Source of the DNA: a candidate division WOR-3 bacterium
Lineage (GTDB): Bacteria > Hydrothermota > Tepidihabitantia > B3-TA06
Reading direction: 5' to 3'
Assembly: GCA_965649265.1 (NCBI GenBank)
Contig: CBFGKC010000012.1
Location: forward strand, 35,861-99,860
DNA length: 64,000 nucleotides
The notes beneath the pieces are model-generated. The model did not search any database and had not been told where the DNA came from. It worked only from the letters and a program-made list of their open reading frames with translations. A program made the translations under genes and the position numbers. Position 1 is the first letter of the stretch. Every line of letters begins with the position of its first letter. This document shows, piece after piece, positions 9,600-55,175 of the stretch.

Positions 9600-9688
9600 G
9601 TGTTACGGGTGTTACGGGTGTTACTTCCTTTGATTCTCCGTTGTTGATGGAAGTGCCCCGCAGGGGTACGGGTGTTATTTCCTTTGAT
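9600..9688 (-). repeat. intergenic copy of the VTP/PLRGTS palindromic element
   Basis: (GGGTGTTAC)n-TTCCTTTGATTC...GGAAGTGCCCC-GCA-GGGGTAC-GGGTGTT; near-identical to 46196-46294 and similar to 54444-54520. Confidence 0.85.
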
Positions 9689-9711
9689 AAAGCTGCATAT
9701 GGAAACGCCCT

Positions 9712-9846
9712 ATGAGATATAGCCATATCTCAAGGGGCGGACCCTGACCTATGGAATACAGATTCATTCCAAGGGTCAGACTCTCTCCTATGGGGACGGG
9801 TTACGGGTGTTACGGGTGTTACAGATGTTATGGGGGGACGGGGTTA
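9712..9846. repeat. hairpins plus a further GGGTGTTAC tandem array
   Basis: TGAGATAT/ATATCTCA and CTGACC..TGGAAT/ATTCCA..GGTCAG inverted repeats; GGTTACGGGTGTTACGGGTGTTAC at about 9799-9822. Confidence 0.6.
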
Positions 9847-10620
9847 CCTGGTCGCGGTCTCCAGACCCGTGCGGATGTCTGCGATGCCTGCGAGGCGGGA
9901 GAAATCCGAGTAGTGCCAGATTCCTGAAAGCTCCTTGTCCTTGATTCTATAAATAACGACACCGAGACCCAGGGATGTCCCGTAGGCCGTAACGAAAAGG
10001 TTGTTAATCGTGAAACCGGTGCCGAAGAGAGGAGGATCCTCTATTTGCCATTCGACGGCGTATGTGGGACCGGTCTGGTCAATCTTGAGAACGCCCTTGT
10101 AGCTGCTGCCGTTGGGATTTGTGCCCGTAAGCGTCCATGTGCCGGAGAGCTTGAGCGTAGAGTATTTGAGATCGGGTGCGCCCTCCGATTTCTCCCAGAC
10201 GTACTTGTCGTCGCCTGCTCCGACCTTGAGTCCCGATATGCCGCTGCCGGACTTCTGGTATACGGCCACGCCGACGCGCTTACCCCTGGGAAGATTTATT
10301 TCGTATGCCGCACCAAGATACCCGTCAACCTCGAGACCGTTGCCGTAGTAGGTCTCACCCGAGGACGTCTTCCAGCAAAGATTATACCCTTTCTCCACCC
10401 GTCTTATCAAGAGCGTATCGGCGGAGCCGTTCCATTGATTAACGAGGTAAGTCCCCGAAAAATCGACAGGCTCGACCTTGGTGACCGCGTCCTTGTTCTG
10501 TTTCTTTCCGGCGACCTCAAGAAGGCTTTCGATTCTCCAGCCGTTGAGCGAGATTAGCCACACGAGACCTATGGCAATAACGAGAAGGAAAAAGATCAAG
10601 ACACCCCAGGGCTTGCGCAT
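9844..10620 (-). CDS. membrane-anchored protein with two tandem beta-rich domains (paralog 1)
   Basis: Start MRKPWG after AAGGAG; repeated pattern G.Y...G.L.I...G..Y...W...Y.G.G...L.G.W. Confidence 0.7.
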   Translation of the reverse strand: MRKPWGVLIFFLLVIAIGLVWLISLNGWRIESLLEVAGKKQNKDAVTKVEPVDFSGTYLVNQWNGSADTLLIRRVEKGYNLCWKTSSGETYYGNGLEVDGYLGAAYEINLPRGKRVGVAVYQKSGSGISGLKVGAGDDKYVWEKSEGAPDLKYSTLKLSGTWTLTGTNPNGSSYKGVLKIDQTGPTYAVEWQIEDPPLFGTGFTINNLFVTAYGTSLGLGVVIYRIKDKELSGIWHYSDFSRLAGIADIRTGLETATR

Positions 10621-10726
10621 CAATATACTCCTTGGTTCATTTGAAGGAAAGGATACGCCCGGTATTGTGCATGTCAACAAGGGGATGCCGCGAGCGGCGC
10701 GCAGCCGCTCGCGGCAAAGGTACATA

Positions 10727-11458
10727 CTATTGCTTGACCGCTTTCTCAGGACTCAAGTTGATTTTGTCTACGTCCTCAAAATCTTCGTACGCCGTAAAAA
10801 CCCATTTCCCGTCGAGGGTGGAACCCTTGATTTTGTAAACGGTTATTCCTGCTCCGTCTTCGTCACCGAAGCCCACAATCGCAATGTTGTCTACTACGAA
10901 ACCGGTTCCGGGAAAACTCGAGCCGTCGTCCCACTCCCAGTAGGCCTGGAAGGTTTCGCCCGAGCGCTCCAGGGTGAGGGTGTTCTCGTATTCCTCGCCG
11001 TCAATGTATTCCCCCTTCGCGTCGTAGACGCCTGCAATGCTGCGCGTGGAAGCCTTGAGTTCATCGACCCCGCGGCTTTTTTCGTAGGAGACCTCTTCGC
11101 CTCCGGCAGGTGTCCATATTCCCGTTATCTTCGAACCTTTCATCTTATAAGCTGCGATGCCCGCGCCGTCTTCAGCGGCGTAGACTACTCCCAGAACTCC
11201 TTCCATTTCTATACCTGTGCCGTAATGGGTCTGGCCGTTGGGGAAGTTCCATTCGAGCACGTATCCTTCGCCGGCTTTCTTGATGGTCAGGGTTCCCTGG
11301 TAATCAGGACCCTCAATGTTGTATGTGCCCGCGAAATTGCGTGAACTTGTGGTGGGAAGCACGGGTTCCTTTCCTCCTCCTTTGCCCAGGCCGCAGCCGG
11401 TTACGACGAATGCCGCAATAAGCAAAGGCAGAAACGCTAGAACGAGATTTTTCTTCAT
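10727..11458 (-). CDS. lipoprotein with two tandem beta-rich domains (paralog 2)
   Basis: Lipobox VTGC, RBS GGAGG, same duplicated domain. Confidence 0.75.
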   Translation of the reverse strand: MKKNLVLAFLPLLIAAFVVTGCGLGKGGGKEPVLPTTSSRNFAGTYNIEGPDYQGTLTIKKAGEGYVLEWNFPNGQTHYGTGIEMEGVLGVVYAAEDGAGIAAYKMKGSKITGIWTPAGGEEVSYEKSRGVDELKASTRSIAGVYDAKGEYIDGEEYENTLTLERSGETFQAYWEWDDGSSFPGTGFVVDNIAIVGFGDEDGAGITVYKIKGSTLDGKWVFTAYEDFEDVDKINLSPEKAVKQ

Positions 11459-11531
11459 GGATTCCTCCGTGATTTCTTGTTAACGGCCAAGAATATCCCG
11501 CAATTCGTTCTTGTCAAGGCTCGAATCTATC

Positions 11532-12275
11532 TTATTTTCTTGTCGCCCGCTCGATTCCAAAGACGGTCACAGGCTCCCCAGTATGCTCGTCAATATAGGT
11601 GAAAGCCCACTTCCCCTCAAGGCTCGATCCCTCGAGTGAAAGAATCTTGAGAATCTTCGTCCCTCCAACGTCGAAACCGAGCACCAGGACATTGTCCACC
11701 GCTAATCCTGCACCTTGCGCGCTGTCCCCGGCCTCGAATTCGGCCACCGCCTCGTATACATCACCTTCTTTCATGAGCGTCATCGGATACTCGTACGGTT
11801 CACTGCCGTCCGGGTGCGAACCCTTGACGTACCATGAGCCCTCGAAACGACGATCGGAAGGCTTGAGTCTCGCGGCGCCCCGGGAATATTCGGCGAAGAC
11901 TTTTTCTCCGTCCACATTCATCCACAAGCCCGAGAGCTTTCCTTCAGAGACCGTGTAAATTCCGAGGATTCCGCCCTCGCCCGGGTATCCATAGCCGAGG
12001 TAATCGCCAAGATCGAGGCCGGTGTATTCGAAAGCTTCAAGACCAATCTCCCGGTAAACCCTGAAGACCGCGTATTCTTCGCTGAACGCCACCACTCTCT
12101 CCCCTTTACCGTCTTCTGAGGTGTCCGGGCTCGTAACCTTGTAAGAGCCGTGAAATATGGATTCTTTAGTCGAATCGCAGGCCTCCTCGTTTGAGCGGGG
12201 ATTGGATTCGCGGCGTGGATGCCCGCAACAGTCGAGAACGAACACCAGGAAAACGAACGACAGGAGATTTCTCAT
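11532..12275 (-). CDS. probable lipoprotein with two tandem beta-rich domains (paralog 3)
   Basis: Start MRNLLSF after GAGG, signal ending in LDCC, same duplicated domain. Confidence 0.7.
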   Translation of the reverse strand: MRNLLSFVFLVFVLDCCGHPRRESNPRSNEEACDSTKESIFHGSYKVTSPDTSEDGKGERVVAFSEEYAVFRVYREIGLEAFEYTGLDLGDYLGYGYPGEGGILGIYTVSEGKLSGLWMNVDGEKVFAEYSRGAARLKPSDRRFEGSWYVKGSHPDGSEPYEYPMTLMKEGDVYEAVAEFEAGDSAQGAGLAVDNVLVLGFDVGGTKILKILSLEGSSLEGKWAFTYIDEHTGEPVTVFGIERATRK

Positions 12276-12461
12276 TTCTTTACCTCGCGCGCTGATTGAT
12301 TCAGGAAGCATAGGAAAGAAAAAAATCTTGTCAAGCGCGCCCGTAATCATTTGCGTAGTCAAGTCACGCAACAACTAAGAACCGCCTTTTTCAAGGGAGG
12401 AGGAGGTCCATGTGCATCCCGGCAAGGTTTGACATGGATGGAATATTTGCTATGATTATGC

Positions 12462-13790
12462 ATGCTTGATCCAAAAAAATACCGCAGCAAGTTTCCATCG
12501 CTCGCTCAAGAGCGAAACGGCAAGCCGCCTATATATTTCGACAGCGCTTGCATGGCTTTGAAGCCGCAGCCGGTAATTGACGTTTTAAACGACTACTATA
12601 CGCGCTATCCGGCTTGCGGCGAACGCAGCACGCACTGGTTTGCAGTTCAGGTTGACTCCAAAATAGAGGAGGCTCGCGATTCCATACGCGAATTGATCGG
12701 AGCCTCGAGTCCCAAGGAAATAATCTTCACCAAAAACACCACTGAGGCCATTAACCTTGTTGCCCGCTCTCTCATGTGGAATCCGCAAGACGTTGTGCTG
12801 ACTACGTCAAAGGAACACAACTCCAATCTCTGCCCGTGGCAGGAGCTTGCCGCGAGAGGCATTATCGCAAAGCACCTGCCCGTGGACGTGGACGAAAGCA
12901 ACAGGTTCAGCATGGATTCCTTCAAGAAGCTCCTCGCCGAGGAACACGGCAAGGTGAAGATGGTCAGCCTGGGGCATTCATCAAACCTCGATGGAACCTG
13001 TATTCCCGACCAGACCATCAAGGACGTCGTAAAGCTGGTGAAAGCTCAGAATCCCGATGCCTTCGTTTTTCTGGACGCGGCACAGAGCGTGCCACACAAA
13101 CTCGTGAACGTTCGCGATCTGGGCGTCGATTTCATCGCCTTCTCGGTTCACAAGATGGGCGGTCCCACTGGCGTAGGAGTGCTCTACGGCCGCAAGGAGC
13201 TTCTGAACGACGAATCGGTAATCAGACCTTTCATCGTGGGCGGAGGGACGGTCGAGGACACGCATCTTTTCGGGCATCCGCAGTATTTCAAGGCTCCCCA
13301 CAAGTTCGAGGCCGGTCTTCAGGACTACGCCGGAATCATAGGCGCGGGTGCCGCAGCGCGATTTCTACTCAAGGTCGGGCCGGAGAATATCGCCGAGCAC
13401 GAGAGAGAGCTTAACACGGCGCTTACGGAAAAACTCGCCAAACGTCAGGAGATTCGAATCGTAGGACCCGCGGACCCCAAGGATCGGTCCGGCATTCTCA
13501 CCTTCTACATCCTCAAGCCCGCGACCCGCTTCTCGGATACCGAACCCGATATCGACGAGAAGCTCGACGCACGAGCCAACATCATGATACGCAAGGGCAC
13601 GTTCTGCGTTCATTCCTGGTACCATGCGCAGGAATCGATGTTCGATTCCATCTGGCCCGGGTTCAGGCCCACACTCTTCCGCGTCTCGTTTTACCTTTAC
13701 AGCACGATGGAAGAAGTGGAAGTCTTTGCCAAAACAATCGAAGAAATCCTCGAAGAAATCGCCGAACTTCCGACTTTCAAAGGTGCGTGA
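12462..13790 (+). CDS. sufS: cysteine desulfurase, SufS-like (aminotransferase class V)
   Basis: YFDSA, EHNSN, DAAQS, SVHKMGGPTGVG (PLP lysine), FEAG and RKGTFCVH catalytic-Cys loop. Leaderless promoter TTGACA-N16-TATGAT-N5-ATG. Confidence 0.85.
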   Translation: MLDPKKYRSKFPSLAQERNGKPPIYFDSACMALKPQPVIDVLNDYYTRYPACGERSTHWFAVQVDSKIEEARDSIRELIGASSPKEIIFTKNTTEAINLVARSLMWNPQDVVLTTSKEHNSNLCPWQELAARGIIAKHLPVDVDESNRFSMDSFKKLLAEEHGKVKMVSLGHSSNLDGTCIPDQTIKDVVKLVKAQNPDAFVFLDAAQSVPHKLVNVRDLGVDFIAFSVHKMGGPTGVGVLYGRKELLNDESVIRPFIVGGGTVEDTHLFGHPQYFKAPHKFEAGLQDYAGIIGAGAAARFLLKVGPENIAEHERELNTALTEKLAKRQEIRIVGPADPKDRSGILTFYILKPATRFSDTEPDIDEKLDARANIMIRKGTFCVHSWYHAQESMFDSIWPGFRPTLFRVSFYLYSTMEEVEVFAKTIEEILEEIAELPTFKGA

Positions 13791-14188
13791 GGATGGTAGA
13801 AGAACCCTTGATTGTAAGCTATTTCAAGCATATTTTTTCAGATCCTGCGGCCAGCCGCATGGGGAAGATAGACAACGCCGAACTTCAGATAAACGGTGAG
13901 CTTTGCCCGCGCCGCGGTAAAAAGGATCAGCTGTTTCTCCACGGCAGAATCATCGAAGGCAGGCTGAAGGATCTGAAGTTCATGTGCGCGCTCTGCGACC
14001 CGCCGATGTTCGTCGCCGCCGACATTCTCTGCAGGCTGGCGCTGGAAAAGACGAGGGAAGAAATTTCTCTGCTTGACGAGAAAAAATTCGAGGAGTGTCT
14101 CGGCGGTTCGAGCCTAGAGGGCTTCGAGCATTTCAAAAGAGCCAGGGAACTGCTGGTGCTTGGACTCTTAGAGACAGAAGGAAAATGA
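13787..14188 (+). CDS. SufU/IscU-like protein, divergent
   Basis: Overlaps the desulfurase stop; N-terminus resembles NifU_N (HIFSDP...MGKI..AE); Cys in GELC and KFMCALC. Confidence 0.6.
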   Translation: MRMVEEPLIVSYFKHIFSDPAASRMGKIDNAELQINGELCPRRGKKDQLFLHGRIIEGRLKDLKFMCALCDPPMFVAADILCRLALEKTREEISLLDEKKFEECLGGSSLEGFEHFKRARELLVLGLLETEGK

Positions 14189-14688
14189 AGCGCGATAACC
14201 CTTTCCTTTTCCATGTCAATCACCTGGAGCAGGGCGAAAACCGCTTTGAGGTCGAGACCGATGCCTCGGTAATAGGCTTCGACAACCATCCGCTTACTAA
14301 ACCGCTCGACTGCCTGATTGTGCTTGACAGAACCGGCAACAGGATCAACCTTCACCTGGAGGTCAGAACTTCTGTGGAGCTCGAGTGCGCCCAGTGCGGT
14401 GATGTCACCTGCAAGAAAATCCACTCGTCGGCGGATTTCACTTTCCTGCCCGCCGCGGAACAAGACGAGACAAGGGACGACAGCTTTGCCTCTGACCTTG
14501 AATTCTACACGGATACGATAGACCTCAAGAACATTGTCAAGGATACGTTGCTGCTTTCACTGCCGATAGCGCCTTTGTGCCGCGAGGACTGCCGCGGGCT
14601 CTGCCCTAAATGCGGAGCAAACCTTAACTCGGGCGAATGCGCTTGCGGCACGGACGAAAAGCCCAGCTCCGAAAACCAAGGGAGATAA
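14185..14688 (+). CDS. yceD: DUF177/YceD family protein
   Basis: CAQC, IDL..IV.D.LLLSLP..PLC..DCRGLCPKCG.NLN...C.C motifs. Confidence 0.85.
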   Translation: MKRDNPFLFHVNHLEQGENRFEVETDASVIGFDNHPLTKPLDCLIVLDRTGNRINLHLEVRTSVELECAQCGDVTCKKIHSSADFTFLPAAEQDETRDDSFASDLEFYTDTIDLKNIVKDTLLLSLPIAPLCREDCRGLCPKCGANLNSGECACGTDEKPSSENQGR

Positions 14689-14692
14689 GAAG

Positions 14693-15274
14693 ATGGATGA
14701 AAGAAAGATGTCCTTCGGCGCCCGACGCGCGCTCGCGATAATCGGTTCGACAAACTCCCTCCTGCTCAGGGAGCGAAGTGCCAAGGAAGCCGATTCCAAG
14801 GCGCTGAGGGAACAGGACAGGAAGGTTCTGGACGCGGTCGACGGCAAACGCAATGCCCGTGAAGTAGTCTCTGCGGCCGGGCTTGAGTTCGAGAACGGCC
14901 TTAATTCTTTAGCCTGGCTTATCCGCACCGGTTTCATCTACTCGGCCGAAACGGTGCGGCTCGAGGTGGATCGGCAGGCGGACCGTCTTGGATTGTTCGT
15001 CGAGCTTTTCTCGGACTCCGGACACGGGGCCGAATTCTGGCAGAAAGTGATTGTCGATGTCGTCAAGGGGAATCTGATGCTCCAGAAGATCGTGCCCTCG
15101 ATCCAGTGGGACGGGCTTTCACCTAGGATTTCCGATCCCCCCCCCTCCCCCGGCGAGATCAGGGAATATTTCCTTGAACTTTTCGTTTCCCTCTACGACA
15201 GGGCGGAGGAAGTTTTCGGTTCCGAGTCCGTTATCGCCAAGCGTATCCTGCTCGACGTGAAACCCCTGGTTTGA
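14693..15274 (+). CDS. hypothetical protein with a winged-helix-like segment
   Basis: VL..VDGKRN..EV....GL.......L..L...G.I pattern; in operon. Confidence 0.55.
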   Translation: MDERKMSFGARRALAIIGSTNSLLLRERSAKEADSKALREQDRKVLDAVDGKRNAREVVSAAGLEFENGLNSLAWLIRTGFIYSAETVRLEVDRQADRLGLFVELFSDSGHGAEFWQKVIVDVVKGNLMLQKIVPSIQWDGLSPRISDPPPSPGEIREYFLELFVSLYDRAEEVFGSESVIAKRILLDVKPLV

Positions 15275-15320
15275 TAAAGGGAAAAAGGGAAACAAACAGT
15301 TTTTCAACGCGCATAGAGAA

Positions 15321-15351
15321 ATGAGGAACCTTGCGGTTCCTCATCTTTTTT
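15321..15351 (+). terminator. intrinsic terminator
   Basis: ATGAGGAACC-TTGC-GGTTCCTCAT-CTTTTTT between convergent operons. Confidence 0.7.
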
Positions 15352-15384
15352 AAAATCCGGAAATGTGTTTTATTAAGACGCAGC

Positions 15385-15840
15385 CTACTCGGATTCTTTC
15401 AGTATATCCACCACCTCCGCAGCACTCGACGCATTGGACAGCTTCGCTCGTGTCTCTTCCCTGCGCAGTATCTTTGAAAGTCTCGCCAGTGCCATTATAT
15501 ACTGCGACTTCTGGGTTTCTGGTGCGGCGATAAGGAATATAAGATGGGAGGGCTTTCCGTCAAGCGAGTTAAAGTCGACTCCCTGGGCGGACCTGCCGAA
15601 CGAAAGTATCAGGTTTCGGGCGGCCAGGGTGCGTGCGTGAGGGATTGCGACTCCCAGTCCTATGCCGGTGCTTTCAAGGTTTTCACGCTTGAGAATATCC
15701 GCCAGGAAGCTTTCCTCGTCTTCGACGAGCCCCTGGTCAACGAGCTTCGTGACCAGTTCCTTTATTACGGATACCTTTTCGCGTGACTTTAAATCGAGCA
15801 CTATACCTTCCTCGTGTATCACCTCGGAGATTCGGATCAT
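15385..15840 (-). CDS. PTS IIA component (Ntr/fructose type)
   Basis: RE..ESTGIG.GVAIPHAR and DF.SLDG.P motifs. Confidence 0.9.
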   Translation of the reverse strand: MIRISEVIHEEGIVLDLKSREKVSVIKELVTKLVDQGLVEDEESFLADILKRENLESTGIGLGVAIPHARTLAARNLILSFGRSAQGVDFNSLDGKPSHLIFLIAAPETQKSQYIMALARLSKILRREETRAKLSNASSAAEVVDILKESE

Positions 15841-16241
15841 CGTCCCTCCTGGTTAAGCAAAAGCAGGGGAACACCGCCGAGCAATCCTAAAAGGCGCCCG
15901 GCATTGATTTCCTTGTATAAAAAAGTTGCGCAAATGTCGGCCTCGTAGCTTTTTGCAACGGAGGCCATTCTTTCTTCCGCCTCTCCTTCCTCAAGCATCA
16001 GGGATATTTTGATCTCCCGTTCGAATGCTATATCCTCAATTCCGTAAAGGAAATTCCATGTTCGGTCCTCCAATTCGTCCCGGAGTTCTTTTTCTTCTTT
16101 TGACATGTTCTGGTCCTCCGGCGCAATGACTGCAAGGGCTATTAACCTTGCTCGAAGCGCAGAAGCTAAATCCATTACTCCTTCCAACTCTTCCAGTCGC
16201 GTTCTGGCCGAGTCCAGATAGATGAGCATGCGTTTATACAA
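15837..16241 (-). CDS. universal stress protein-like
   Basis: MYKRMLIYLD...G.....I...A....AD...PLLLL USP pattern; TTG start after GGAGG. Confidence 0.6.
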   Translation of the reverse strand: MYKRMLIYLDSARTRLEELEGVMDLASALRARLIALAVIAPEDQNMSKEEKELRDELEDRTWNFLYGIEDIAFEREIKISLMLEEGEAEERMASVAKSYEADICATFLYKEINAGRLLGLLGGVPLLLLNQEGR

Positions 16242-16253
16242 TTTACTTGCCTC

Positions 16254-45493: not shown

Positions 45494-46639
45494 TTATTTG
45501 CGTTGCTGCGCCAGGGAATACAGGCTCTGAAGGGCATCAAGGTCAAGACTGAGATCCTCGTTCTCACCGTAATCCCGGCGAATTGGATCAAGTGTTTTCT
45601 CGTAAGCCCTTTCGTTCCACTGCCTGGCGAACCTTTCGGCGTTTGCCATTGAGCCTGTATAGAAGCGCTGCCAGAGAAAGCTGTATGCCAGCACGGCGTC
45701 GAGATAGCGAGCGGCAAGAAGGTTTGAAACGACAAGATACGTATCGCCGGCGTTCACGAGAAGCGCCCAGAACCCGAACAGGGGTCTTCCTGCGTAGGTT
45801 TCACCGAGGCCTGGAATAATCGAAAGCCAGCGAGCGGCCGTGGGGTTTTTCAAGGCCGGCCTCGTTTCCATGAGCGTCAGCGCAAGTGAATCGTCACCAG
45901 CGTTGGCGAATTCGTGTGCCGCGCTCTCGAAATCCTTCGCCTCAAGATATGCCCAGCCCCTGAGACGAAAGGCGGGCGCGCCGAGGCTGGAGCACACGGC
46001 CGAATCAATCTGCCTGGTCGCGAGATAGGGGTCCTCCTCCCCTATGAGGATGACGGCGCGAACCATTCGGACGACCGAACCGTCGATTGAATAAAGGATT
46101 GAATCAGCCTCGTTTCGTTCGCCGTTGCGATAGAGTGAAACAGCCAACTTGAGAAGTGTCATTACGGAATCCTCGAGCAAGGGCACGACCGTGAATGTTA
46201 CGGGTGTTACTTCCTTTGATTCGTTGTTGCTGACGGAAGTGCCCCGAAGGGGTACGGGTGTTGCGGGTGTTACGGGTGTTACGGGTGTTACGGGGTTGCC
46301 CGACATTCTGAGTCGGCCCGAGGAATCCGGATAGAGAAATGGCGCCAGCCCGGAGTAGTACAGGGCTCTCTTGTACTCCAGTGCGGCCGCATCGAACTCT
46401 CCGTAGGCGTAGAACGAATCGGCGAGCGCCTCTGTTCTCGCTGGATCGGGCAGAGGTGCGACATCGAAAGCTTCGGGAAAAGTGGAGGATGATGCAGGAG
46501 CTGCAAAGATGGGAAGGGCAGAGAAACAGACTATCCTCAGCAAAAGTAAGGAACATATTTTCCGGGAGGAATGAACGAGGCGGACTCTGAGTGAGACTCT
46601 GAGGCGGGGTCTGAGGGGGGCTCTGAGGAGGGCTTTCAT
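45494..46639 (-). CDS. TPR-like / DUF5683-like protein carrying in-frame repeat insertions
   Basis: LADSFY..GEF..AA.EY.R and LSIIPGLGE.Y.GR motifs; paralog of 46636-47454; contains VTPVTPVTPATPVPLRGTS...EVTPVT. Confidence 0.65.
   Translation of the reverse strand: MKALLRAPLRPRLRVSLRVRLVHSSRKICSLLLLRIVCFSALPIFAAPASSSTFPEAFDVAPLPDPARTEALADSFYAYGEFDAAALEYKRALYYSGLAPFLYPDSSGRLRMSGNPVTPVTPVTPATPVPLRGTSVSNNESKEVTPVTFTVVPLLEDSVMTLLKLAVSLYRNGERNEADSILYSIDGSVVRMVRAVILIGEEDPYLATRQIDSAVCSSLGAPAFRLRGWAYLEAKDFESAAHEFANAGDDSLALTLMETRPALKNPTAARWLSIIPGLGETYAGRPLFGFWALLVNAGDTYLVVSNLLAARYLDAVLAYSFLWQRFYTGSMANAERFARQWNERAYEKTLDPIRRDYGENEDLSLDLDALQSLYSLAQQRK
46196..46294 (-). repeat. in-frame copy of the VTP/PLRGTS palindromic element
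   Basis: Near-identical to 9600-9688; keeps the host ORF open. Confidence 0.85.
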
Positions 46640-47454
46640 GGGCGTTTGATTTCCGGTTCGAGATCGAACTTCGAGAGCAGGTTTTCGAGCTGCTCTTTTC
46701 GCTTTCGGACTTCGAAATCGTTGTAATCGAGCGCCGCGTTTGCCGCACCGTAGATATTACCGAGCCAGAAAAGCCCCCCGAGTGAGGCAGTCACGGCTAT
46801 CTTTATCGTGTTGCCTGCTGAGGTGTCCTTTGAGAAAAAACCGTAGTAGAAGGCGGCCGCGCCGAACAGGACGGGAAGGGAAAATGACTGCCACGCGTCG
46901 GCCCAGCGCCCGCAGTATGCCTGTCCCGCGCCCGGCAGGATGGTAGAAAGCCCCGCCGAAAGCCAGGGGGAGCGGCGGCCGGGTTTCGTTCCGAGCAGAT
47001 TGATTGTCTGGTCAATAAGTGCTGAAGGAGGCCGGCTCTTCAAGATGGCCAGAGCCGAATCCTCTTGACCGGAGAAAACGTGCGCGAATGAGAGGTAGAT
47101 GGCGCTCTCCCCTGCCAGGTCGGAGGCACTTAGTCTGGGCGCGATTATCTTTACGGCCGGGTAACCGCCGGCTGCGAACTCCGCGCGCATGTAACCGTAT
47201 TGAAAGTATTCCCAGCGAGTGGAAACGTTCTTTATTCCGAACTCGAAGACGTTTGCGGCACGCTCGTAGTCCCGGGTTTTAATCAAGGATTCGCCGGCCT
47301 TCAAAACGGCATAAGGAGTCCATACGGTGTCTTCGGGATCGGCAAAACCTATGCGCTCGTATTCCAGAGCGGCCCTCTCGTAATCGCCAGTCAGGTAAAG
47401 GTGATCGGCGAAATCGATCGGCGCCTGGTTGAAAAGGAGAAGGAGGATCATCAT
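46636..47454 (-). CDS. TPR-like / DUF5683-like protein
   Basis: FAD.LY..GDY.RA..EY.R and LSTILPGAGQ.Y.GR motifs. Confidence 0.7.
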   Translation of the reverse strand: MMILLLLFNQAPIDFADHLYLTGDYERAALEYERIGFADPEDTVWTPYAVLKAGESLIKTRDYERAANVFEFGIKNVSTRWEYFQYGYMRAEFAAGGYPAVKIIAPRLSASDLAGESAIYLSFAHVFSGQEDSALAILKSRPPSALIDQTINLLGTKPGRRSPWLSAGLSTILPGAGQAYCGRWADAWQSFSLPVLFGAAAFYYGFFSKDTSAGNTIKIAVTASLGGLFWLGNIYGAANAALDYNDFEVRKRKEQLENLLSKFDLEPEIKRP

Positions 47455-47985: not shown

Positions 47986-48723
47986 ATGGGAATACTCCTT
48001 ACGATAATTGTTATGATAGGAATGGAGAGCGGCATCGGGTTTACGGGCTCGCTTGGATTAGAACCAGCCTTGCTTTTAAGGGGGCATGACATCGAGTACT
48101 CTTACCGGTTTCGCGATTTCATCGATTTCCCCTCGGACGCCATTTACGCCTCCGGCACTTTCAGGGCAAAAGCGGGCCTGAGCATCGCCGGCACCCTGTT
48201 GCTCAAAGCAACAGGCGGGGTTGAGCACGCCCGGATCGTTGACGCCGAACCTCTGCTTTACTTTCCTTTTGACACCACTCGGGAATACTACCCGAGCACC
48301 GCCCTGAAGAGCCTCACATGGAGCATGGGAGGGGAAGTCGGTCTCATGCTGCATTCTCTTTCGGCAAGCTATCAAAAGAAAGCAGGTGACATCTTCGCCG
48401 GTCTGGAATACACCCGTGGAAGATTCAAGGGTAATGACTCCTGGCATACCTGGGAGGACGATCAATTCGTAGCGCTCGGGGATTTCTCTTACGAAAACCC
48501 GGTAGAAGGCATACAGGGGTACGTTGGAATTTCCGTTCCCTTCTGGGAGCGCGGCCCGTTCTCGTTCACGTTCAGCGGTCTCCTGAGGGGCGGTTCGGTA
48601 AGGGAGTTGTACATTACGCCTCTGTCTCTGATACTTCGGGGCGCAGAGATGCATTCGCCGCGCACTCTTCTCAAGTGGGGAGCCTCGGTCGGCCTCGGTG
48701 TCGCCTTCAACGGTGGTGGATGA
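47986..48723 (+). CDS. hypothetical outer-membrane beta-barrel-like protein
   Basis: RBS GGAGG, beta-strand pattern; shares SLGLEPAL with the next gene. Confidence 0.55.
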   Translation: MGILLTIIVMIGMESGIGFTGSLGLEPALLLRGHDIEYSYRFRDFIDFPSDAIYASGTFRAKAGLSIAGTLLLKATGGVEHARIVDAEPLLYFPFDTTREYYPSTALKSLTWSMGGEVGLMLHSLSASYQKKAGDIFAGLEYTRGRFKGNDSWHTWEDDQFVALGDFSYENPVEGIQGYVGISVPFWERGPFSFTFSGLLRGGSVRELYITPLSLILRGAEMHSPRTLLKWGASVGLGVAFNGGG

Positions 48724-50081
48724 CGATTGCGGTATATTCATTGCTGCAGGTGGTCCTTGCGGCACCGGCTTTCCAGGCATCCCTGGGATTAGAACCGGCT
48801 CTAATGCCAAAGGTGCGAGCCTTCGAGGCGATTTTTCTTCCCTATGGCGCATATTACTTCAACAACCGCGTATCACTCAAAATGGGTGCCGAGTTCGGCA
48901 ACTTCTTTTCGCTGAGAGGGACTTTCGGCCTTGCGCGGTCTTTCATGCGCGACGGGCCGTCCTGTATCTCTCAATACGACGGTTCGACCGGATGGCGCTC
49001 TTTCGAGGCAAGCTTCGGGATTGAATCTGGATATGCTGCCCGGTACCGCAGGGGAAAGGGCGATGTGATATGGGGAATCTCAGGGATTTTGGGACACTTC
49101 GACGGCGTTTTCGTGAGCGGGAGAATAGGAAGCAACGACAGCATTTACTACGACTCCGCCTCAATCAAGGCGCTCGCAAAGGGCGGCGAGGTTTACCTTG
49201 GTCTCAATCTTCCAATAGGCCGGCTTGGGCCGATTGGTGTCAAAATCGCGACCATTCTGAAGGGTGGGGCGCTCTTCCTCGATCCGACTTCGATCGGTGG
49301 AGGATACGAATGGAAAGGCTACCCCACGAAAACAGGAACAATGCCCAGGTGGGGGGTATCCGTCGCTCTCAATTTTGATTTCGATGCAAGCAAGATTCCA
49401 CTGGATGTTTTGCCAGACGCACGGTGGCGGCACAAGCTTGATCTTTACGATGCGCCTTTATCCCAGGGGTGCCTGGACTGCTGCTGTCTTTACGGAACCG
49501 CCTGGCCTGTAAGGGGGAGGGGGTCCCCTCTCGCCGTCCAAATCCTTTCCGCGCTTGTCATGGGTCCAGGGGCAGGAACCGCCGCCGGCCTTTTGGCCGC
49601 TGCATCAATGTGGGACGCCTCGAGCGAGGATGTATACAAGCCCGTCCTTGGGGTTTGCTTCTACCTGTTCCCGCCGGTAGGGTCTGTACTCGGAACAATG
49701 GGGTCCGGGGCCATTGTGAATCCGGGCGGCAGCTTCAGGTACACGCTTGCCGGAGCCCTTTTTGGAACACTGGCGAATCTGGCTCTTACCGAGGGATACA
49801 TTCTGGTCACCGGCAGGTATCCCTGGACATCCCACTGGCCGCCTTTATCCGTATCACTTACCCCGGACGTCATCGGCGTCATGATCGCGGGATCTACTCT
49901 GCCGGCGGTTGGAGCCGTCATCGGATACAACCTGAGCATCAAGCATACGCTCGAATCCTCACAGGACACGCTCGGTCTCAGGCCGTCGTGGACGGAGTTT
50001 GCGCTGGAACAATCACGGGAGACCGGCCTGAAGTCGAACACGGCGGTAATCGGCTTTGACATCATTGATCTTTCTTTCTGA
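48720..50081 (+). CDS. hypothetical protein (barrel-like N-terminus, Gly-rich TM C-terminus)
   Basis: ATGA overlap with the previous gene; N-terminal half paralogous to 47986-48723. Confidence 0.55.
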   Translation: MTIAVYSLLQVVLAAPAFQASLGLEPALMPKVRAFEAIFLPYGAYYFNNRVSLKMGAEFGNFFSLRGTFGLARSFMRDGPSCISQYDGSTGWRSFEASFGIESGYAARYRRGKGDVIWGISGILGHFDGVFVSGRIGSNDSIYYDSASIKALAKGGEVYLGLNLPIGRLGPIGVKIATILKGGALFLDPTSIGGGYEWKGYPTKTGTMPRWGVSVALNFDFDASKIPLDVLPDARWRHKLDLYDAPLSQGCLDCCCLYGTAWPVRGRGSPLAVQILSALVMGPGAGTAAGLLAAASMWDASSEDVYKPVLGVCFYLFPPVGSVLGTMGSGAIVNPGGSFRYTLAGALFGTLANLALTEGYILVTGRYPWTSHWPPLSVSLTPDVIGVMIAGSTLPAVGAVIGYNLSIKHTLESSQDTLGLRPSWTEFALEQSRETGLKSNTAVIGFDIIDLSF

Positions 50082-50146
50082 GGTTCCGAATCAAGGGTAC
50101 CTGGAACGTATATTGACAAGCTGCCAGTCCTGGATATTGTTTCGAT

Positions 50147-51160
50147 ATGAGAAGGCATTGTTTTTTATTCTTTTTTGTTTTTTTTGTTCCTCTTCTGCTC
50201 GCGCTCTCCTGCAACCAGGCGGAGGAGATCCCGGGGCAGCGGGTCCCCCTGGGCGACGTATCAAAGGACTACTGGGAACCCGTTGATCTGCCGCTAAGCG
50301 ATCCTTTGTTCCTTGACGCGTCTGGAGAGGTTCTTGCCGTCGCATCTACGGATTCCCTGGCTACAAGCACTGACGGAGGAGTTACCTGGCGAAGGAAAGC
50401 TGTTGCCGGCATTACCAGCATCGGGATAGACGAGCGAAACGCCAGCCGTTTGCTGATAGTAGCAGACAAAAAGTTTCTCGTCTCCACGGATAACGGGGCT
50501 AGTTTTTCCGAACACGACGCCCCCGATTACTTCGTCATGGTCGTACCTCATCCCTCGCTTTCATCCGATCTTCTGGCGATCTCTGATACCGCGTTCTGGC
50601 GCTCCGGGGACATGGGTGAAACGTGGGAGTTGATATTCGTGCCTCCGAATAATCCTAACCTCTCGCATCTCGCCCTGGATTTAGCAGACACCTCGTACAT
50701 GTATCTTATCGACGCGGGAGGACTCAGGATATCATCGGACGGCGGAAGCAAGTGGGACTCAAGAACATACTTCGAACAGGACAGCGTCACCCATCTTGTG
50801 ACTGCTACAAAAGGGGTCTTCGTGGGTGCGGGCGGCTTTATTCGCTTCTCTCCCTCGCACGGCGATGCCAACTCGTGGCTGAGCTACGGACCTTATTTTT
50901 CGACCCCACCCGAACTTGCCGATTTTCTCGTGATAGACGATCAGACAATACTCTATACCTGCTTCGTCCAGGACCCCGGCGAGTATGAAGCCTACATAAC
51001 ACATGATCTGAACGTCCATTGGCCCAACGCCTCACCCGGGCTTCTCGGGTTTTACGGCAACCTTACGCTTGCCCGGTCGGATAAAACTTACTTCGCACTC
51101 ATCACATCCCAGCAACAAAACTTTCTTTTCAAATTCAATGACACGGAGCTTTTACCATGA
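50147..51160 (+). CDS. lipoprotein, BNR/Asp-box (VPS10/YCF48-like) beta-propeller
   Basis: Lipobox ALSC; Asp-boxes STDGGVTW, STDNGASF, SGDMGETW, SSDGGSKW. Confidence 0.75.
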   Translation: MRRHCFLFFFVFFVPLLLALSCNQAEEIPGQRVPLGDVSKDYWEPVDLPLSDPLFLDASGEVLAVASTDSLATSTDGGVTWRRKAVAGITSIGIDERNASRLLIVADKKFLVSTDNGASFSEHDAPDYFVMVVPHPSLSSDLLAISDTAFWRSGDMGETWELIFVPPNNPNLSHLALDLADTSYMYLIDAGGLRISSDGGSKWDSRTYFEQDSVTHLVTATKGVFVGAGGFIRFSPSHGDANSWLSYGPYFSTPPELADFLVIDDQTILYTCFVQDPGEYEAYITHDLNVHWPNASPGLLGFYGNLTLARSDKTYFALITSQQQNFLFKFNDTELLP

Positions 51161-51804
51161 GCATACTGGGTTCAATTCTAAAACTTTCGCTTGGACTCGG
51201 GCTTTCGGGTACGGCACCTCTCTCTAACCAGCTTTCAAGACACGTGGACACGTTGAGCGGCTCGCTCGAGACGCGCGGATGGGAGGGTTCCATATCGAGT
51301 CCGCTGCCGATAATCCCTGAGGCCGAGCTCTGGCTGCGTGCAGGGCCCTTGCGTGCAGCGGTATCATACGCCGCCAACATCGCCGGCGGAACGGTTACTC
51401 ATGACCTCTACGGAACTGCCGATTATTCGTTCTACGCAAGTGAGTTTGCAGCAAGGATCGAGCTTTTAGGAAACCTGGGTCCGATTCACCTTTACTGCGG
51501 TCCGAGCGGAGCCTTGAGCAAACTTGCCGTCAAAAGTTCGAGCGTCAGCAGCGAAATCGACAGTAGCTATTCCAGCTTCAACATCGGTGCAGAAGCGGGC
51601 GTTGGAGTAACTCTTCCCTTTGGAAAGTGGAGACTCGGCGCTGAACTCTACGGCCGCTACCAGCCTGGCACCCTCCAGGGACTGTGGTTTAATCCCGACG
51701 AGGGCATTCTTTACGAATCACCAGGGCCTGCACCCGACGACATACAAGGAACTTTCTCCACTACCGGCGTAGGCATACGAATCCTCGCCGGGCTTGCACT
51801 TTAA
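51157..51804 (+). CDS. hypothetical outer-membrane beta-barrel-like protein
   Basis: Overlaps the previous stop; alternating strand pattern. Confidence 0.5.
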   Translation: MSILGSILKLSLGLGLSGTAPLSNQLSRHVDTLSGSLETRGWEGSISSPLPIIPEAELWLRAGPLRAAVSYAANIAGGTVTHDLYGTADYSFYASEFAARIELLGNLGPIHLYCGPSGALSKLAVKSSSVSSEIDSSYSSFNIGAEAGVGVTLPFGKWRLGAELYGRYQPGTLQGLWFNPDEGILYESPGPAPDDIQGTFSTTGVGIRILAGLAL

Positions 51805-51928
51805 GGCTCAGGAGCCGGTCTGAGGGACTTGACATAAGAAGGAGTTTCAGCTATCATTTGAGCAGAATAATCAACCATGGGAAATTTTCGCAAAATAGCT
51901 ACAGTTAACAAAACCAAAGGAGTGTAAA

Positions 51929-53071
51929 GTGAAAAAAATCCTTGCTATGGCGGCGATCCTCATACTCGCACTGGCGGGCTGCAATGTAATCCCGACAGGA
52001 CCGACCGAGCACACGGGAAATATCACTGCCAATGAGACCTGGGAACCATCGGGAAACCCCCACATCGTCAAATCGAACATCTCAGTGGAGAACAACGCAA
52101 CCCTGACAATAAAACCAGGATGTATAGTCAGGTTCGACGTCGGTACGGATCTTTACTGTGGATATAACGGCGCAGGTGCAATAGTCGCCAAGGGAACTGC
52201 CGATTCCTTGATAACATTCAGTTCTAACGTCGCCTCCCCCTCCCCCGGCGACTGGGAAGCCATCGAGATTTACAAGGACGCAATGTCCACGACGAGCTTC
52301 GAGTACTGCACCATAGAATACGGCGGCAACTCCGACAGTTACGGTTCCTTCTACATCGAGAATTTCGGACTTCCAATGAACAATTGTACCATACGTAAAA
52401 GCGGCAGCTATGGAATTCGAATGACGGGAGACGGCTTTTTCAAGACGTTCAACAGCAATATTATTACTGAATGCGCCAAGCATCCCATCTATATAAGCCC
52501 CGAATACATCCGCACCATCGGCACGGGCAACGGCTTTACGGGCAATACAAAGGACGGCATCCTTGTCGGAATAGGAAAAGTAACCACAACCGGAACATGG
52601 CCCGACCTGGCCGTTCCTTACGAAATTGAAGGCAATGTTTCGATAGAAGACAATTCCAACACACCGACGATTACGATCGGCCCGGGCGCGACCCTGAAGA
52701 TGCAGAACGCGGTGGAAATCCAGGTAGGTTACAACGCTCCCGGCGGATTGATTGCGGACGGCACGGTATCCAGGATTACCTTTACCAGCGCGGTAACTCC
52801 TTCGGCCAAAGGCGACTGGATGTGCATATCATTCTTCGATAAATCCATAGACGCTAACTGCAGGCTCAAAAACTGCAAACTGGAATACGGCGGCAACGGC
52901 GACTACGGCAACATATACATTGCAGATGCCTTGCCTGAAATCACAGGCGATTCGATAGGGCACAGCACGGGTTATGGAATATACGTAACCGGCTCGGAAT
53001 ACCCGGATACTAACACGCTTCGCAGTTCAAACACATTCTATGACAACGACCTCGGCGACGTAGGACCTTAA
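51929..53071 (+). CDS. lipoprotein with right-handed beta-helix repeats
   Basis: Lipobox LAGC; duplicated I.FTS.....P..GDW..I and C..EYGG units. Confidence 0.75.
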   Translation: MKKILAMAAILILALAGCNVIPTGPTEHTGNITANETWEPSGNPHIVKSNISVENNATLTIKPGCIVRFDVGTDLYCGYNGAGAIVAKGTADSLITFSSNVASPSPGDWEAIEIYKDAMSTTSFEYCTIEYGGNSDSYGSFYIENFGLPMNNCTIRKSGSYGIRMTGDGFFKTFNSNIITECAKHPIYISPEYIRTIGTGNGFTGNTKDGILVGIGKVTTTGTWPDLAVPYEIEGNVSIEDNSNTPTITIGPGATLKMQNAVEIQVGYNAPGGLIADGTVSRITFTSAVTPSAKGDWMCISFFDKSIDANCRLKNCKLEYGGNGDYGNIYIADALPEITGDSIGHSTGYGIYVTGSEYPDTNTLRSSNTFYDNDLGDVGP

Positions 53072-53088
53072 TAATATCTTTTGAGATT

Positions 53089-53115
53089 AAAAAGGGGCCC
53101 CCCGGCCCCTTTTTT
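53089..53115 (+). terminator. intrinsic terminator (bidirectional-looking)
   Basis: AAAAGGGGCC...GGCCCCTTTTTT. Confidence 0.7.
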
Positions 53116-53124
53116 GTTTCCACC

Positions 53125-53152
53125 TTGACATGGGGATGAGAGAACGTATAAT
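53125..53152 (+). promoter_or_regulatory. consensus sigma70 promoter of the met operon
   Basis: TTGACA-N16-TATAAT. Confidence 0.8.
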
Positions 53153-53158
53153 AAAAGC

Positions 53159-53230
53159 ATGCGGCATGTATCATCATACGCGAAACAAATAATCGGGCGC
53201 GCTTGTATGTGCGTCCGAATGTGCCGTTAA
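53159..53230 (+). CDS. putative leaderless Cys/Met-rich leader peptide (23 aa)
   Basis: MRHVSSYAKQIIGRACMCVRMCR*; ATG 6 nt after TATAAT; ends 41 nt before the MTHFR start. Confidence 0.55.
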   Translation: MRHVSSYAKQIIGRACMCVRMCR

Positions 53231-53271
53231 GCCAACCCCCCAAAAAAATCTGGACAGGAAGATAATGCATT

Positions 53272-54159
53272 ATGGATAGGGTTATTTTCGAGATAATTAC
53301 GCCGCCCGAAACCTGGGCTCCCCAGAAGATTGAGGAATGGGCCCAGAGGGTGTGTGAGATATTAAAACGTCACTCGCTTCGCTGCCTCAATATCCCGGAG
53401 GTAGTAAACGAAACCAGGGACGGCGACCGCAGGGTGCGCTACATCCCCAAGATGGATAACGTTTCTTTTGCACGCGTGCTTGCAAAAACGTGCCCCAATG
53501 CCGTTCCCGTTCTCAACAAGATCTCGGTCCGTATCACGAGACCGGAGTTCGAACAGTGGGTAGAAAGGATTTACGAACAGGGTGTCCGCCACCTCATTAT
53601 CGTCGGCGGCGAGCTCCCCGACTACCCCTACCCCGGCTATCAGGTCTCTGAAGCCGCAGCATGGATTAAATCAAAGTACCCCGACGTGAAAGTCGGCGGG
53701 ATAACGATATTCACGCGCCCGCACGAGGCCGACAGAATCGCTGCCAAGATGCAGGCCGGCATCGACTTCTTCGTCTCGCAGATCATATACGAAACGACTA
53801 ACCTCAAGCACGTGCTGATAGAACTGGATAAGATTCTGCCCGGCGGTGCAGGTGATCAAGCACAGCGCTTTCCCGACATATACGTCTCCATCGCGCCCGC
53901 CGCAAGGATACGGGACATCGAATTCATGATGTGGCTGGGCGTCGAGATACCCTCGGCAATACTGGCATACCTTGCAAAGGACGACGAGGAGGTGGAGGAG
54001 CGAACCTTCGAGATCAATATGAGGGTACAAGAGGAGATATTCGAATTTATCAACAAGAAAGGCTACCGGCTTGGCTTTAACGTCGAGCACGTTATATACA
54101 CCAACCTGGGTCTTTCGGAAAGGCTTGTAGACGAGATAATCGAAAGGATGGGTAGATGA
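53272..54159 (+). CDS. methylenetetrahydrofolate reductase-like protein (divergent, resembling the mycobacterial monomeric type)
   Basis: FEIITPP, NIPE, GGI.I..R..E..R...K..AG.DFF.SQ pattern; first gene of the MetE operon. Confidence 0.65.
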   Translation: MDRVIFEIITPPETWAPQKIEEWAQRVCEILKRHSLRCLNIPEVVNETRDGDRRVRYIPKMDNVSFARVLAKTCPNAVPVLNKISVRITRPEFEQWVERIYEQGVRHLIIVGGELPDYPYPGYQVSEAAAWIKSKYPDVKVGGITIFTRPHEADRIAAKMQAGIDFFVSQIIYETTNLKHVLIELDKILPGGAGDQAQRFPDIYVSIAPAARIRDIEFMMWLGVEIPSAILAYLAKDDEEVEERTFEINMRVQEEIFEFINKKGYRLGFNVEHVIYTNLGLSERLVDEIIERMGR

Positions 54160-55175
54160 ACATACTTCTTTGGGGTCAGTATCCCCGCTCGGAGCGGCTA
54201 GTAGAAGTGACAAGGGATTTTGACCGAAAACGCGTATCGGAACAAGAACTTGCCGCGGCAAGGAAGGAGGATTCGGGGTCCTTCGCCAGACTGCAGGACG
54301 CCATGCCCTTCGTCTCGACAGGGCTCTTCGGCTGGCAGGATCTTTTAAGACCCTTTGCCGACATAGTCCCCACTCTCAAGGTGACCGGCCTAAAGCGTTT
54401 CTTCGAAACCAACACCTTCTGGAAGGTCCTCGAGCCCTCCTCCCCCGAACCCCAGAGGGGCACTTCCATCATCAGCAAAGAATCAAATGAAGTAACACAA
54501 CCCTCCCCCGTAACACACCAATTCTCATCCCCTTCCCTCCCAGTGGATGAGTCAGATATTGATGATTGGATAAAAAAGTATTTTTTTGCCGACGGCATGT
54601 ACCCCGTGGATGCCCCCCTCGTGTTCACGCTTCCGTTCATTTACCTCTTTAAGGAGTACACGCGGAACGTTGATTACGAAGCGATTGTTGAGATGCTGGA
54701 CGTTGTCGCAAAAAAATTGATGAGCATGGATAACAAATTACTGGTGTTTGCCGAGCCGAGCTTCGGCTGGCGTGAGATATCGAAGGGTGAAAAGGACAAA
54801 GGACTCGAATTCATAAAACGAGTGAAGTCTTACTCAGGGAACAGAGTGGTTATTAACACGTATTTCTTTGACGTGGAAAAAGAGAAGGACTTCCTTTACT
54901 CCCTGCCCGTTGACGGCATAGGCATTGACTTTTACTCGAACTCCATAGAGCGTGCCGCCGGTGGTTTTCCGAAGGACAAGATGCTCATTGCAGGAGTTCT
55001 TTCGACCGATTCGACTCATATCGAGGAGAGGGAAAAACTCACCGCTTTCTTTTCATCGCTCGAAAAGCACGTTGACCGCTCGCGCATATGGGGCACGAGC
55101 GCCGGGCCGATAGAGCTTTTACCGAGGGTTGTCGCTGACGAAAAGGTCAGAAACCTCAAGGAGGTCTTGAAATGA
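54156..55175 (+). CDS. metE: split cobalamin-independent methionine synthase, N-terminal (folate-binding) half; carries an in-frame repeat insertion
   Basis: G.YPRS..L, WQD..RP, RFFETNTFW, EPS, TYF, LPVDGIG.DF, LP...A..K motifs. Confidence 0.75.
   Translation: MNILLWGQYPRSERLVEVTRDFDRKRVSEQELAAARKEDSGSFARLQDAMPFVSTGLFGWQDLLRPFADIVPTLKVTGLKRFFETNTFWKVLEPSSPEPQRGTSIISKESNEVTQPSPVTHQFSSPSLPVDESDIDDWIKKYFFADGMYPVDAPLVFTLPFIYLFKEYTRNVDYEAIVEMLDVVAKKLMSMDNKLLVFAEPSFGWREISKGEKDKGLEFIKRVKSYSGNRVVINTYFFDVEKEKDFLYSLPVDGIGIDFYSNSIERAAGGFPKDKMLIAGVLSTDSTHIEEREKLTAFFSSLEKHVDRSRIWGTSAGPIELLPRVVADEKVRNLKEVLK
54444..54520 (+). repeat. in-frame diverged copy of the VTP/PLRGTS palindromic element
   Basis: CCCGAACCCCAGAGGGGCACTTCCATCATCAGCAAAGAATCAAATGAAGTAACAC...CCCGTAACACACC, reading PEPQRGTSIISKESNEVTQPSPVTH. 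Confidence 0.75.

Follow-up and report, generated by a model that had tools for sequence, protein, structure and literature searches.

How does one short DNA repeat come to lie both between genes and, in frame, within unrelated proteins? This question is raised by a 64,000-nucleotide stretch (hereafter the window; G000:C12:35861-99860) from the genome of a WOR-3 / Candidatus Stahlbacteria bacterium (G000; 2.74 Mb, 27 contigs, 51% GC, 96% complete). An earlier note on this DNA had described a palindromic element that is inserted in frame into proteins in the manner of the Rickettsia palindromic elements (RPEs). Three copies are present, far above chance, at the sites that the note had given: 9600-9688 (minus strand, intergenic), 46196-46294 (minus strand, in the open reading frame (ORF) 45494-46639 of a TPR-like protein) and 54444-54520 (plus strand, in ORF 54156-55175, the N-terminal half of the methionine synthase MetE, MetE-N). 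The core pattern GGGGYAC..TTCC..GAATCAAAGGAA has two exact matches in the window versus none in 100 shuffled sequences, the MetE copy being a diverged third one, and the 9-mer GTAACACCC matches 12 times, with 0.29 matches expected. The two copies within genes follow the coding strand and share a frame that reads VTP...PVPLRGTS...ESKEVTP. The intergenic copy is open in this VTP frame as well, within a 69-codon stop-to-stop frame built of repeat modules. As the note had observed, the adjoining paralogue of the TPR-like gene contains no unit and lacks the peptide in an alignment, and the MetE-N copy comes after RFFETNTFWKVLEP.

Genome-wide, the repeat is a mosaic of modules. The first consists of direct arrays of CCGTAACAC(C/A)C-type units. 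The second is a core in which the stem CAYTTCC-N20-GGAARTG comes after the hairpin TACCCC-N3-GGGGCA. The third, optional module comprises long hairpins of ~37 nt; many intergenic copies have one precisely at the junction of the two core halves. A core had been claimed at a length of ~67 bp; it exists, but the core proper measures 45 nt and sits at the unit boundary CCCG^TAAC. Likewise, the proposed GTRCCCC/GGGGYAC hairpin is present but imperfect, with A mispaired to C in 20 of the 27 copies aligned. A core profile built from nine copies yielded 47 matches at E<0.01 on the G000 contigs. The GTAACAC motif occurs 554 times in G000 and gives 98 multi-unit arrays, one of which is mixed-strand. An array lies within 100 nt of 27 of the 39 core loci, and the orientation of core and array was identical in 29/29 pairings. 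Merging all modules resulted in 108 composite loci, which cover 9.5 kb. The long hairpin has 48 matches, 45 of them intergenic. Unit arrays coincide with contig breaks: five G000 arrays are no more than 300 nt away from a contig end, contig G002:C52 (1-40) of a relative begins inside units at MetE-N, and contig ends of other relatives likewise lie in arrays (relatives' genomes are labelled G001, G002, G004, G005, G015, G018 and so on). The repeat thus fragments metagenome-assembled genomes (MAGs), and all element counts are therefore lower bounds. It accounts for contig breaks and for peculiar extensions at the N- and C-termini of proteins annotated in WOR-3 MAGs.

Comparison of the host proteins with their orthologues, the check that the earlier note had recommended, supports insertion as the derived state in the five genes tested. 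The 24-aa insert of a UvrD-kinase is missing in 4/4 orthologues from relatives of the same and other genera, and the 20-aa insert of a GltD-like protein in 5/5. The 30-aa insert of the TPR-like protein is missing in four of five orthologues, the fifth bearing an unrelated loop. In a 509-aa protein, the repeat peptide is missing in all five aligned orthologues, and the region is a variable linker. The MetE-N site varies among the relatives: G005 has an empty site, G001 a single unit, and G002 three or more units, with a contig break at this point. A reciprocal case is an epimerase of G001 with three antisense GVT units that are missing from its G000 orthologue; units are found in the MutL linker of G001 as well. 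For MetE-N, the copy is independent of the assembly. In runs of three studies, Logan contigs reach across the insert and into both flanks; contig X1 is 97% alike without gaps, and X3 and X6 are ~93% alike, with the core kept and small indels just downstream. As DNA, the organism is represented in metagenomes from anaerobic digesters, wastewater and food production.

The insert of the TPR-like gene is composed of three GTAACACCC units, GCAACACCC, the 45-nt core (46210-46254) and one further unit, and its translation is PVTPVTPVTPATPVPLRGTSVSNNESKEVT. That of MetE-N consists of CCTCCCCCG, a diverged 45-nt core (54448-54492), TAACACAAC, a second CCTCCCCCG (54502-54510) and TAACACAC, and translates to PEPQRGTSIISKESNEVTQPSPVTH. 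At least 15 host genes carry the repeat. Pfam domains flank the insert in six of them, in two the insert lies within a domain, and in others it forms a terminal tail (Table 1). The spacing of the units is 9 nt (60 steps), 10 nt (22), 11 nt (25), 12 nt (14), 13 nt (15) and so on across the genome. The idea that the flanking units are intrinsically multiples of 3 thus has to be abandoned, as the genome-wide steps also take other lengths and only genic arrays are confined to multiples of 3. Steps divisible by 3 make up 36 of 38 in genic but 42 of 115 in intergenic arrays (Fisher p = 5e-11). Multiples of 3 are a filter on the genic copies and no intrinsic property of the repeat. Such spacing would be unexpected if the segments were removed from the RNA, and the conserved frame therefore suggests that the inserts are translated. 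The product is probably a low-complexity, disordered peptide with VTP/VTH/VTQ, NTR or GVT runs, in which the core reads PVPLRGTSVSNNESKEVTP. In line with the surface loops expected earlier, both inserts map to low-confidence loops of AlphaFold models. In the MetE-N model, the confidence score pLDDT falls below 50 only at residues 98-126, i.e., the insert region. The model of the TPR-like protein has low confidence at residues 100-155, and the insert lies between the helices 82-95 and 156-171. The designation 'TPR-like' agrees with the helical-repeat model, but the Pfam TPR_2 match is sub-threshold (17.5 bits versus a cut-off of 27). A search of 5.8 billion proteins with residues 112-152 of the TPR-like protein found the query alone among 52 candidates, a result that is uninformative for so short and low-complexity a query.

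Placement in G000 was evaluated with a gene set from our own simple codon-usage caller (2198 genes, 84% coding). The genome-wide count proposed in the earlier note shows most copies to be intergenic: genes contain 25 of the 108 loci, a further 30 begin -12 to +60 nt from the stop of a co-oriented gene, and 53 are neither in a gene nor at a gene end. The stops adjoining an element are TAA in 27 of 30 cases versus 833 of 2188 genome-wide (p = 5e-9). Furthermore, 18 genes terminate in the TAA of a GTAACAC motif, mostly as ...CCCG TAA CAC, with the protein ending in Pro. All three sense frames are therefore in use, the stop frame showing as new gene ends. Within called genes, the motif is read in the sense frames VTP (45) and NTR (10) and in the antisense frames GVT (16), VLR (6) and GCY (4). 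Among the nine core copies in ORFs, seven are in the VTP frame (the TPR-like protein, the 509-aa protein, the E2 acyltransferase, MetE-N, ScpA and, twice, an M23 peptidase) and two in the NTR frame (the UvrD-kinase and a NuoF-like protein). The frame bias is thus real but not absolute.

The repeat is restricted to one clade. BLAST with the TPR copy was positive for 10/10 genomes of the family, which represent four genera, and for 0/30 genomes from the same order or class. An exact 20-base pattern found 20 loci among 185,579 species genomes, 18 of them in two Candidatus Stahlbacteria MAGs and two at chance level elsewhere. In at least four genera, among which orthologous proteins are ~40-70% identical, the unit CCGTAACAC(C/A)C is the same to the letter, and the 9-mer is a handy clade marker. 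One form of the core is narrower still. The gene-dwelling subtype ACTTCC...GGAAGT has nine copies in G000 and none in 10 relatives; its exact pattern gave no match in JGI metagenome contigs, a collection from which records near the source genome may be left out. Five of the nine copies lie in frame in unrelated genes, and two more are at or just past stop codons. The confinement of the subtype to G000, together with this placement, suggests that a form whose translation does no harm has spread recently.

We consider it likely that a clade-restricted, non-autonomous mosaic repeat of Candidatus Stahlbacteria spreads at the DNA level and is then subject to a selective filter. The repeat would spread as DNA, with most copies landing between genes and often starting at, or supplying, the TAA of a co-oriented gene. 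Genic copies would persist only where the frame is open and the fold tolerant, as in interdomain linkers, loops and termini, and would then be read as low-complexity peptide, presumably as neutral linkers. The in-frame insertion of a DNA repeat into unrelated proteins proposed earlier is borne out by orthologues without the segments, the use of five frames, the mostly intergenic copies and a 57-nt stretch that is identical at two unrelated loci. The repeat is probably mobile. Its spread could depend on an enzyme or on recombination or slippage via the unit arrays.

Several observations weigh against this explanation. The repeat has no terminal inverted repeats: its ends are direct units, and only the internal hairpins are inverted. 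A possible target-site duplication is indistinguishable from the repeat's own flanking units. In G000, no enzyme is linked to the repeat, and neither TnpB nor RVT_1 nor DDE_Tnp_1 was found at 96% completeness, which is a weak argument since MAGs often lose copies of insertion sequences (IS). The hairpins are weak, with a mean z of -1.15 versus mononucleotide shuffles. The antisense strand folds slightly better than the sense strand (-11.8 versus -10.3 kcal/mol, sense being lower in 8 of 28 copies), so that no strand can be assigned and a sense-strand RNA structure was discarded. The covariation of the second stem described below may reflect a single event that divided two subfamilies. Some antisense 'genic' cases were scored low by the caller or fall upstream of what is probably the true start, e.g., C9:63378, and the listed data sets include no RNA run for the MetE region. 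Finally, repeat sequence is present in two genera or species at MetE-N, at the NuoF-like tail and at the V-ATPase B N-terminus, which means either that part of the inserts are old or that these sites are hot spots. Such shared orthologous sites also fit growth in place by slippage. An inverted repeat around the TPR insert (46165-46178 / 46316-46329) was rejected as a chance feature, as it consists of conserved host codons at two Asp-Ser sites.

It is possible, if doubtful, that no transposition takes place at all. Arrays would then arise and grow by replication slippage at unit-like proto-sites (CCCGT...), and cores and long hairpins would be added by gene conversion with the arrays as homology arms. 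This alternative concerns only the mechanism and has the same outcome. It draws on the architecture of the loci. The core always sits at CCCG^TAAC, where it is bracketed by the unit in the same orientation (29/29) as a direct repeat of 9-11 nt; in MetE-N, CCTCCCCCG is found on both sides. The latter bracket could be a 9-bp target duplication or mean that the core entered an array already in place. Gain and loss of modules respect exact junctions; in another copy, present in public contigs, the 37-nt long hairpin stands exactly between GGGGCA and CTTCC. Orthologous sites hold differing module combinations by species, and the empty TPR site of G001 has the sequence CCC GTC GGC TTT, its counterpart past the insert in G000 being CCC GTA ACA TTC. 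The missing terminal inverted repeats and linked transposase also fit slippage and conversion. Full unit-plus-core blocks stand, however, where orthologues lack any array (UvrD-kinase 0/4, GltD-like protein 0/5, TPR-like protein 0/4). Moreover, the unit is identical across four genera whose proteins have diverged to ~40-70% identity, which requires continual renewal and not local slippage alone.

We also regard as tentative the proposal that the repeat is mainly a functional intergenic signal, be it a hairpin or terminator for 3' ends, a stabiliser of mRNA or a phased array that binds proteins, with genic copies as tolerated spill-over. The 30 loci at co-oriented stops agree with such a role. 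So does the orientation of the elements, as the left-hand gene is co-oriented with the element in 46 of 68 cases (p = 0.005), and between two same-strand genes 25 elements run with the genes and 11 against them (p = 0.03). The intergenic spacing of 9-13 nt is near one helical turn, the unit is conserved in four genera, and the stems show compensatory changes. At pair 25-54 of the second stem, 27 copies have T-A and 10 have C-G, with pairing in 37/37, and this change sets apart two core subtypes. In hairpin 1, pair 10-24 is T-A in 25 copies and C-G in two, and pair 11-23 is A.C in 20, A-T in three and C-G in three. The 53 loci away from the interiors and ends of genes, the weak folding and the unfavoured sense strand argue against a signal. 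Rfam 15 had no match at gathering score in the window, the region 9400-9950 giving only a chance match (E = 9.1), and in G000 the orientation of the repeat has no link to GC skew (56 versus 42, p = 0.19). As a separate observation on structure, the long hairpins, such as the two in the intergenic mosaic of the window, both keep an identical tandem mismatch within the stem (CCTTG...CATAGG), and some copies vary on both sides together (CCCTG...CACAGG). The mismatch may represent a conserved internal-loop motif.

A unit that is letter-perfect over at least four genera and planted at stop codons, linkers and N-termini of core enzymes could be, rather than passive junk, the product or substrate of a dedicated, sequence-specific system of the family, for which a nuclease or recombinase with CCCG^TAAC as its site and a binder of phased arrays are candidates. 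We think this unlikely. If it were true, the 45-nt core would be a cassette targeting unit arrays, of which one subtype recently became a mobile 'linker exon' that makes new disordered segments in essential proteins.

Mobilisation by an HUH (Y1) enzyme of the REP-associated tyrosine transposase (RAYT) type, the repeat being a repetitive extragenic palindromic (REP) or REPIN (REP doublet forming hairpin) family, appears very unlikely to us. No transposase families are among the listed matches of the NCBIfam and Pfam scans of the window ORFs, as the earlier note had observed. Elsewhere, G000 does encode two proteins above the NCBIfam cut-off for RAYTs (112.4 and 97.4 bits versus 80), PF01797 is found in 9/10 family relatives, and the repeat has a short GC hairpin preceded by GTA-. 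The link that the note had drawn to HUH/RAYT enzymes fails nonetheless, because both RAYT genes are flanked by different repeats of their own and neither by the mosaic repeat. RAYT1 (G000:C2:116481-117148, 183 aa, NF047646) lies between two copies, inverted to each other, of a canonical REP of the GTAG type, GGGCCGACC-TGAA-GGTCGGCCC-CTAC; this REP numbers ~11 copies in the genome and constitutes a second repeat system unrelated to the mosaic repeat. RAYT2 (G000:C5:114951-116006, 184 aa, 97 bits) has local tandem hairpins on both sides, GTAACAAC-CGT-GTTGTTAC and variants. Their likeness to the unit was dismissed as coincidence, since in G000 such hairpins occur only beside RAYT2 (4/4 matches). 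No hairpin of the mosaic repeat lies within 3 kb of either gene, only one lone GTAACAC being in range. None of six Y1 loci, which belong to G000, to four genomes of the family and to one from another family, contains a unit array, and lone motifs or hairpin-like matches number one at most per locus. Genome G004 bears the repeat (16 matches) and has no PF01797 match at 93% completeness, and the inverted-pair layout is missing, with 1/98 arrays mixed-strand. A replication-strand bias, as expected of HUH single-strand transposition, was likewise considered and is unsupported by the GC-skew comparison.

We hold it to be highly improbable that the peptide is a selected protein module, such as a Pro/Thr linker or modification site, that has spread between proteins and left the intergenic copies as decayed coding remnants. 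Several secreted proteins with a C-terminal sorting domain have VTP/VTH runs just ahead of that domain, which may count as one event because these proteins are paralogues. The preference of the core copies for the VTP frame is significant under equal use of three open frames (7/9, p = 0.008; 6/8 with the M23 peptidase counted once, p = 0.02). A protein module is contradicted by the reading of the DNA in five frames in different genes, by the prevalence of intergenic copies without 3-nt periodicity, by covarying stems and by orthologues that function without the segment. Moreover, by visual reading of the alignment, core differences are not visibly concentrated at third codon positions. That the intragenic copies are assembly chimeras, as the breaking of G002:C52 within the MetE-N array and the five arrays near contig ends might suggest, deserves practically no credence, given the contigs from three studies that span the MetE insert, the open frames and the flanks collinear with orthologues.

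Table 1. Coordinates of the repeat loci and their host genes in the window, and position of the insert in further host proteins
Feature	Position in window	Strand	Remarks
Intergenic mosaic	9593..9843	-	Between convergent genes 8906-9463(+) and 9844-10725(-)
Mosaic: unit arrays	9602-9624 and 9800-9831	-	Parts of 9593..9843
Mosaic: core, 45 nt	9624-9668	-	Gene-dwelling subtype; part of 9593..9843
Mosaic: second TTCC/GGAA module	about 9667-9700	-	Part of 9593..9843
Mosaic: two long hairpins	9706-9739, 9744-9779	-	Parts of 9593..9843
Gene adjoining the mosaic	9844..10725	-	TAA stop (9844-9846) directly touches the mosaic's degenerate first units
Insert of TPR-like gene	46205..46294	-	In frame, 90 nt / 30 codons
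Host gene, TPR-like / DUF5683-related protein	45494..46639	-	381 aa
Adjoining paralogue	46636..47454	-	24% identity; no unit or core
Insert of MetE N-half	54439..54518	+	In frame
Host gene, N-terminal-domain half of split cobalamin-independent methionine synthase (Meth_synt_1)	54156..55175	+	339 aa
MetE catalytic half	55172-56329	+	Follows the N-half
E2 acyltransferase			Insert between lipoyl and E3-binding domains (Pfam)
Pkinase-UvrD			Insert between helicase N and C parts (Pfam)
GltD-like			Insert between Fer4_20 and Pyr_redox_2 (Pfam)
MazG			Insert between two halves (Pfam)
DnaG			Insert after DnaB-binding region (Pfam)
FAD/Fer4 protein			Insert between domains (Pfam)
Cass2 and DUF2400			Insert within domain envelope (Pfam)
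ScpA, NuoF-like, M23 peptidase			Insert is C-terminal tail (Pfam)
V-ATPase B			Insert at N-terminus (Pfam)

Three further observations were made in the window. The region 53272-56329 (plus strand) holds an MTHFR-like gene followed by the split MetE, encoded as separate, overlapping N-domain and catalytic ORFs; the split arrangement is also found in the relatives G001, G005, G015 and G018. At 560-660, a single unit (622-630, minus strand) adjoins the GC hairpin CCCCCTCC-ACCA-AGGAGGGGG. The combination looks like a small member or relative of the mosaic family and was missed by the core profile. Positions 1555-2913 (minus strand) encode a 452-aa AAA ATPase that resembles MAD3 of the anti-phage system MADS and PtuA (E = 7.5e-34; 117.6 bits versus a cut-off of 420), and which may be a component of a defence system.

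To our knowledge, selfish DNA that is translated in essential genes at such frequency has so far been documented mainly in Rickettsia. The part of a 2024 review on miniature transposable elements with inverted repeats (MITEs) that bears on this point only suggests a similar mechanism in other prokaryotes (PMC10969869). According to the summary in the same review, RPEs are short hairpin repeats that occur between genes and in frame in unrelated housekeeping genes (Ogata et al., 2000, 2002, as summarised in PMC10969869). As far as this summary goes, the Stahlbacteria repeat shares with them its nature as a non-autonomous hairpin repeat, its intergenic and in-frame occurrence in many unrelated housekeeping genes, the addition of a conserved peptide, insertion at fold-compatible positions and the restriction to one clade. 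It differs in size, with a core of 45 nt (60-100 nt including units) versus about 100-150 bp, and in build, since direct arrays of short units are combined with hairpin modules in place of one long palindrome. Furthermore, it uses five frames, its units also supply TAA stops, and its host is an uncultured free-living lineage and not an intracellular parasite. By its 45-nt core, direct units and host, it does not belong to the RPE families 1-10 of Rickettsia; the sequences themselves were not compared, no relation being expected. The differing size and architecture show that the earlier wording, RPE-like in behaviour but a distinct family, was right.

REPs and bacterial interspersed mosaic elements (BIMEs) with their RAYTs, to the extent that they are covered in the consulted text of PMC2817692, resemble the repeat as short GC-rich imperfect palindromes of high copy number that form mosaic composites, lie mostly outside genes near 3' ends and occur in genomes with RAYT genes. 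The Stahlbacteria repeat, however, has no GTAG, its hairpin being preceded by CCCGTA-, and its copies are neither alternating or inverted nor flanking RAYTs, and many of them are inside genes. From MITEs it differs in that it has neither terminal inverted repeats nor, in G000, a related autonomous IS with matching ends. In the brief treatment given in PMC10969869, BOX elements of Streptococcus pneumoniae and intragenic enterobacterial repetitive intergenic consensus (ERIC) sequences are similarly modular with a variable internal module and non-autonomous, and some copies carry or extend ORFs. They differ in modules, size and host; the variable module of the Stahlbacteria repeat is a unit of 9-13 nt, and in-frame insertions in core enzymes are frequent. 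The TAACTGA heptamers of marine Beggiatoaceae and some cyanobacteria, as portrayed in the passages used from PMC4679880, are likewise short direct repeats that are dispersed, mostly intergenic and shared within a lineage. Their unit is another one, and the Stahlbacteria arrays combine with hairpin modules, many of them probably being translated inside genes. Titles and abstracts of the papers listed for Stahlbacteria, for WOR-3 repeats and for the unit strings mention nothing about the repeat.

Compared with these systems, the mosaic repeat would represent a second, unrelated and differently built system of RPE-like behaviour, in an uncultured phylum, with clear before/after comparisons of orthologues and a species-confined burst. 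It may thus serve as a natural experiment on the entry of new disordered linkers, tails and stop codons into proteins.

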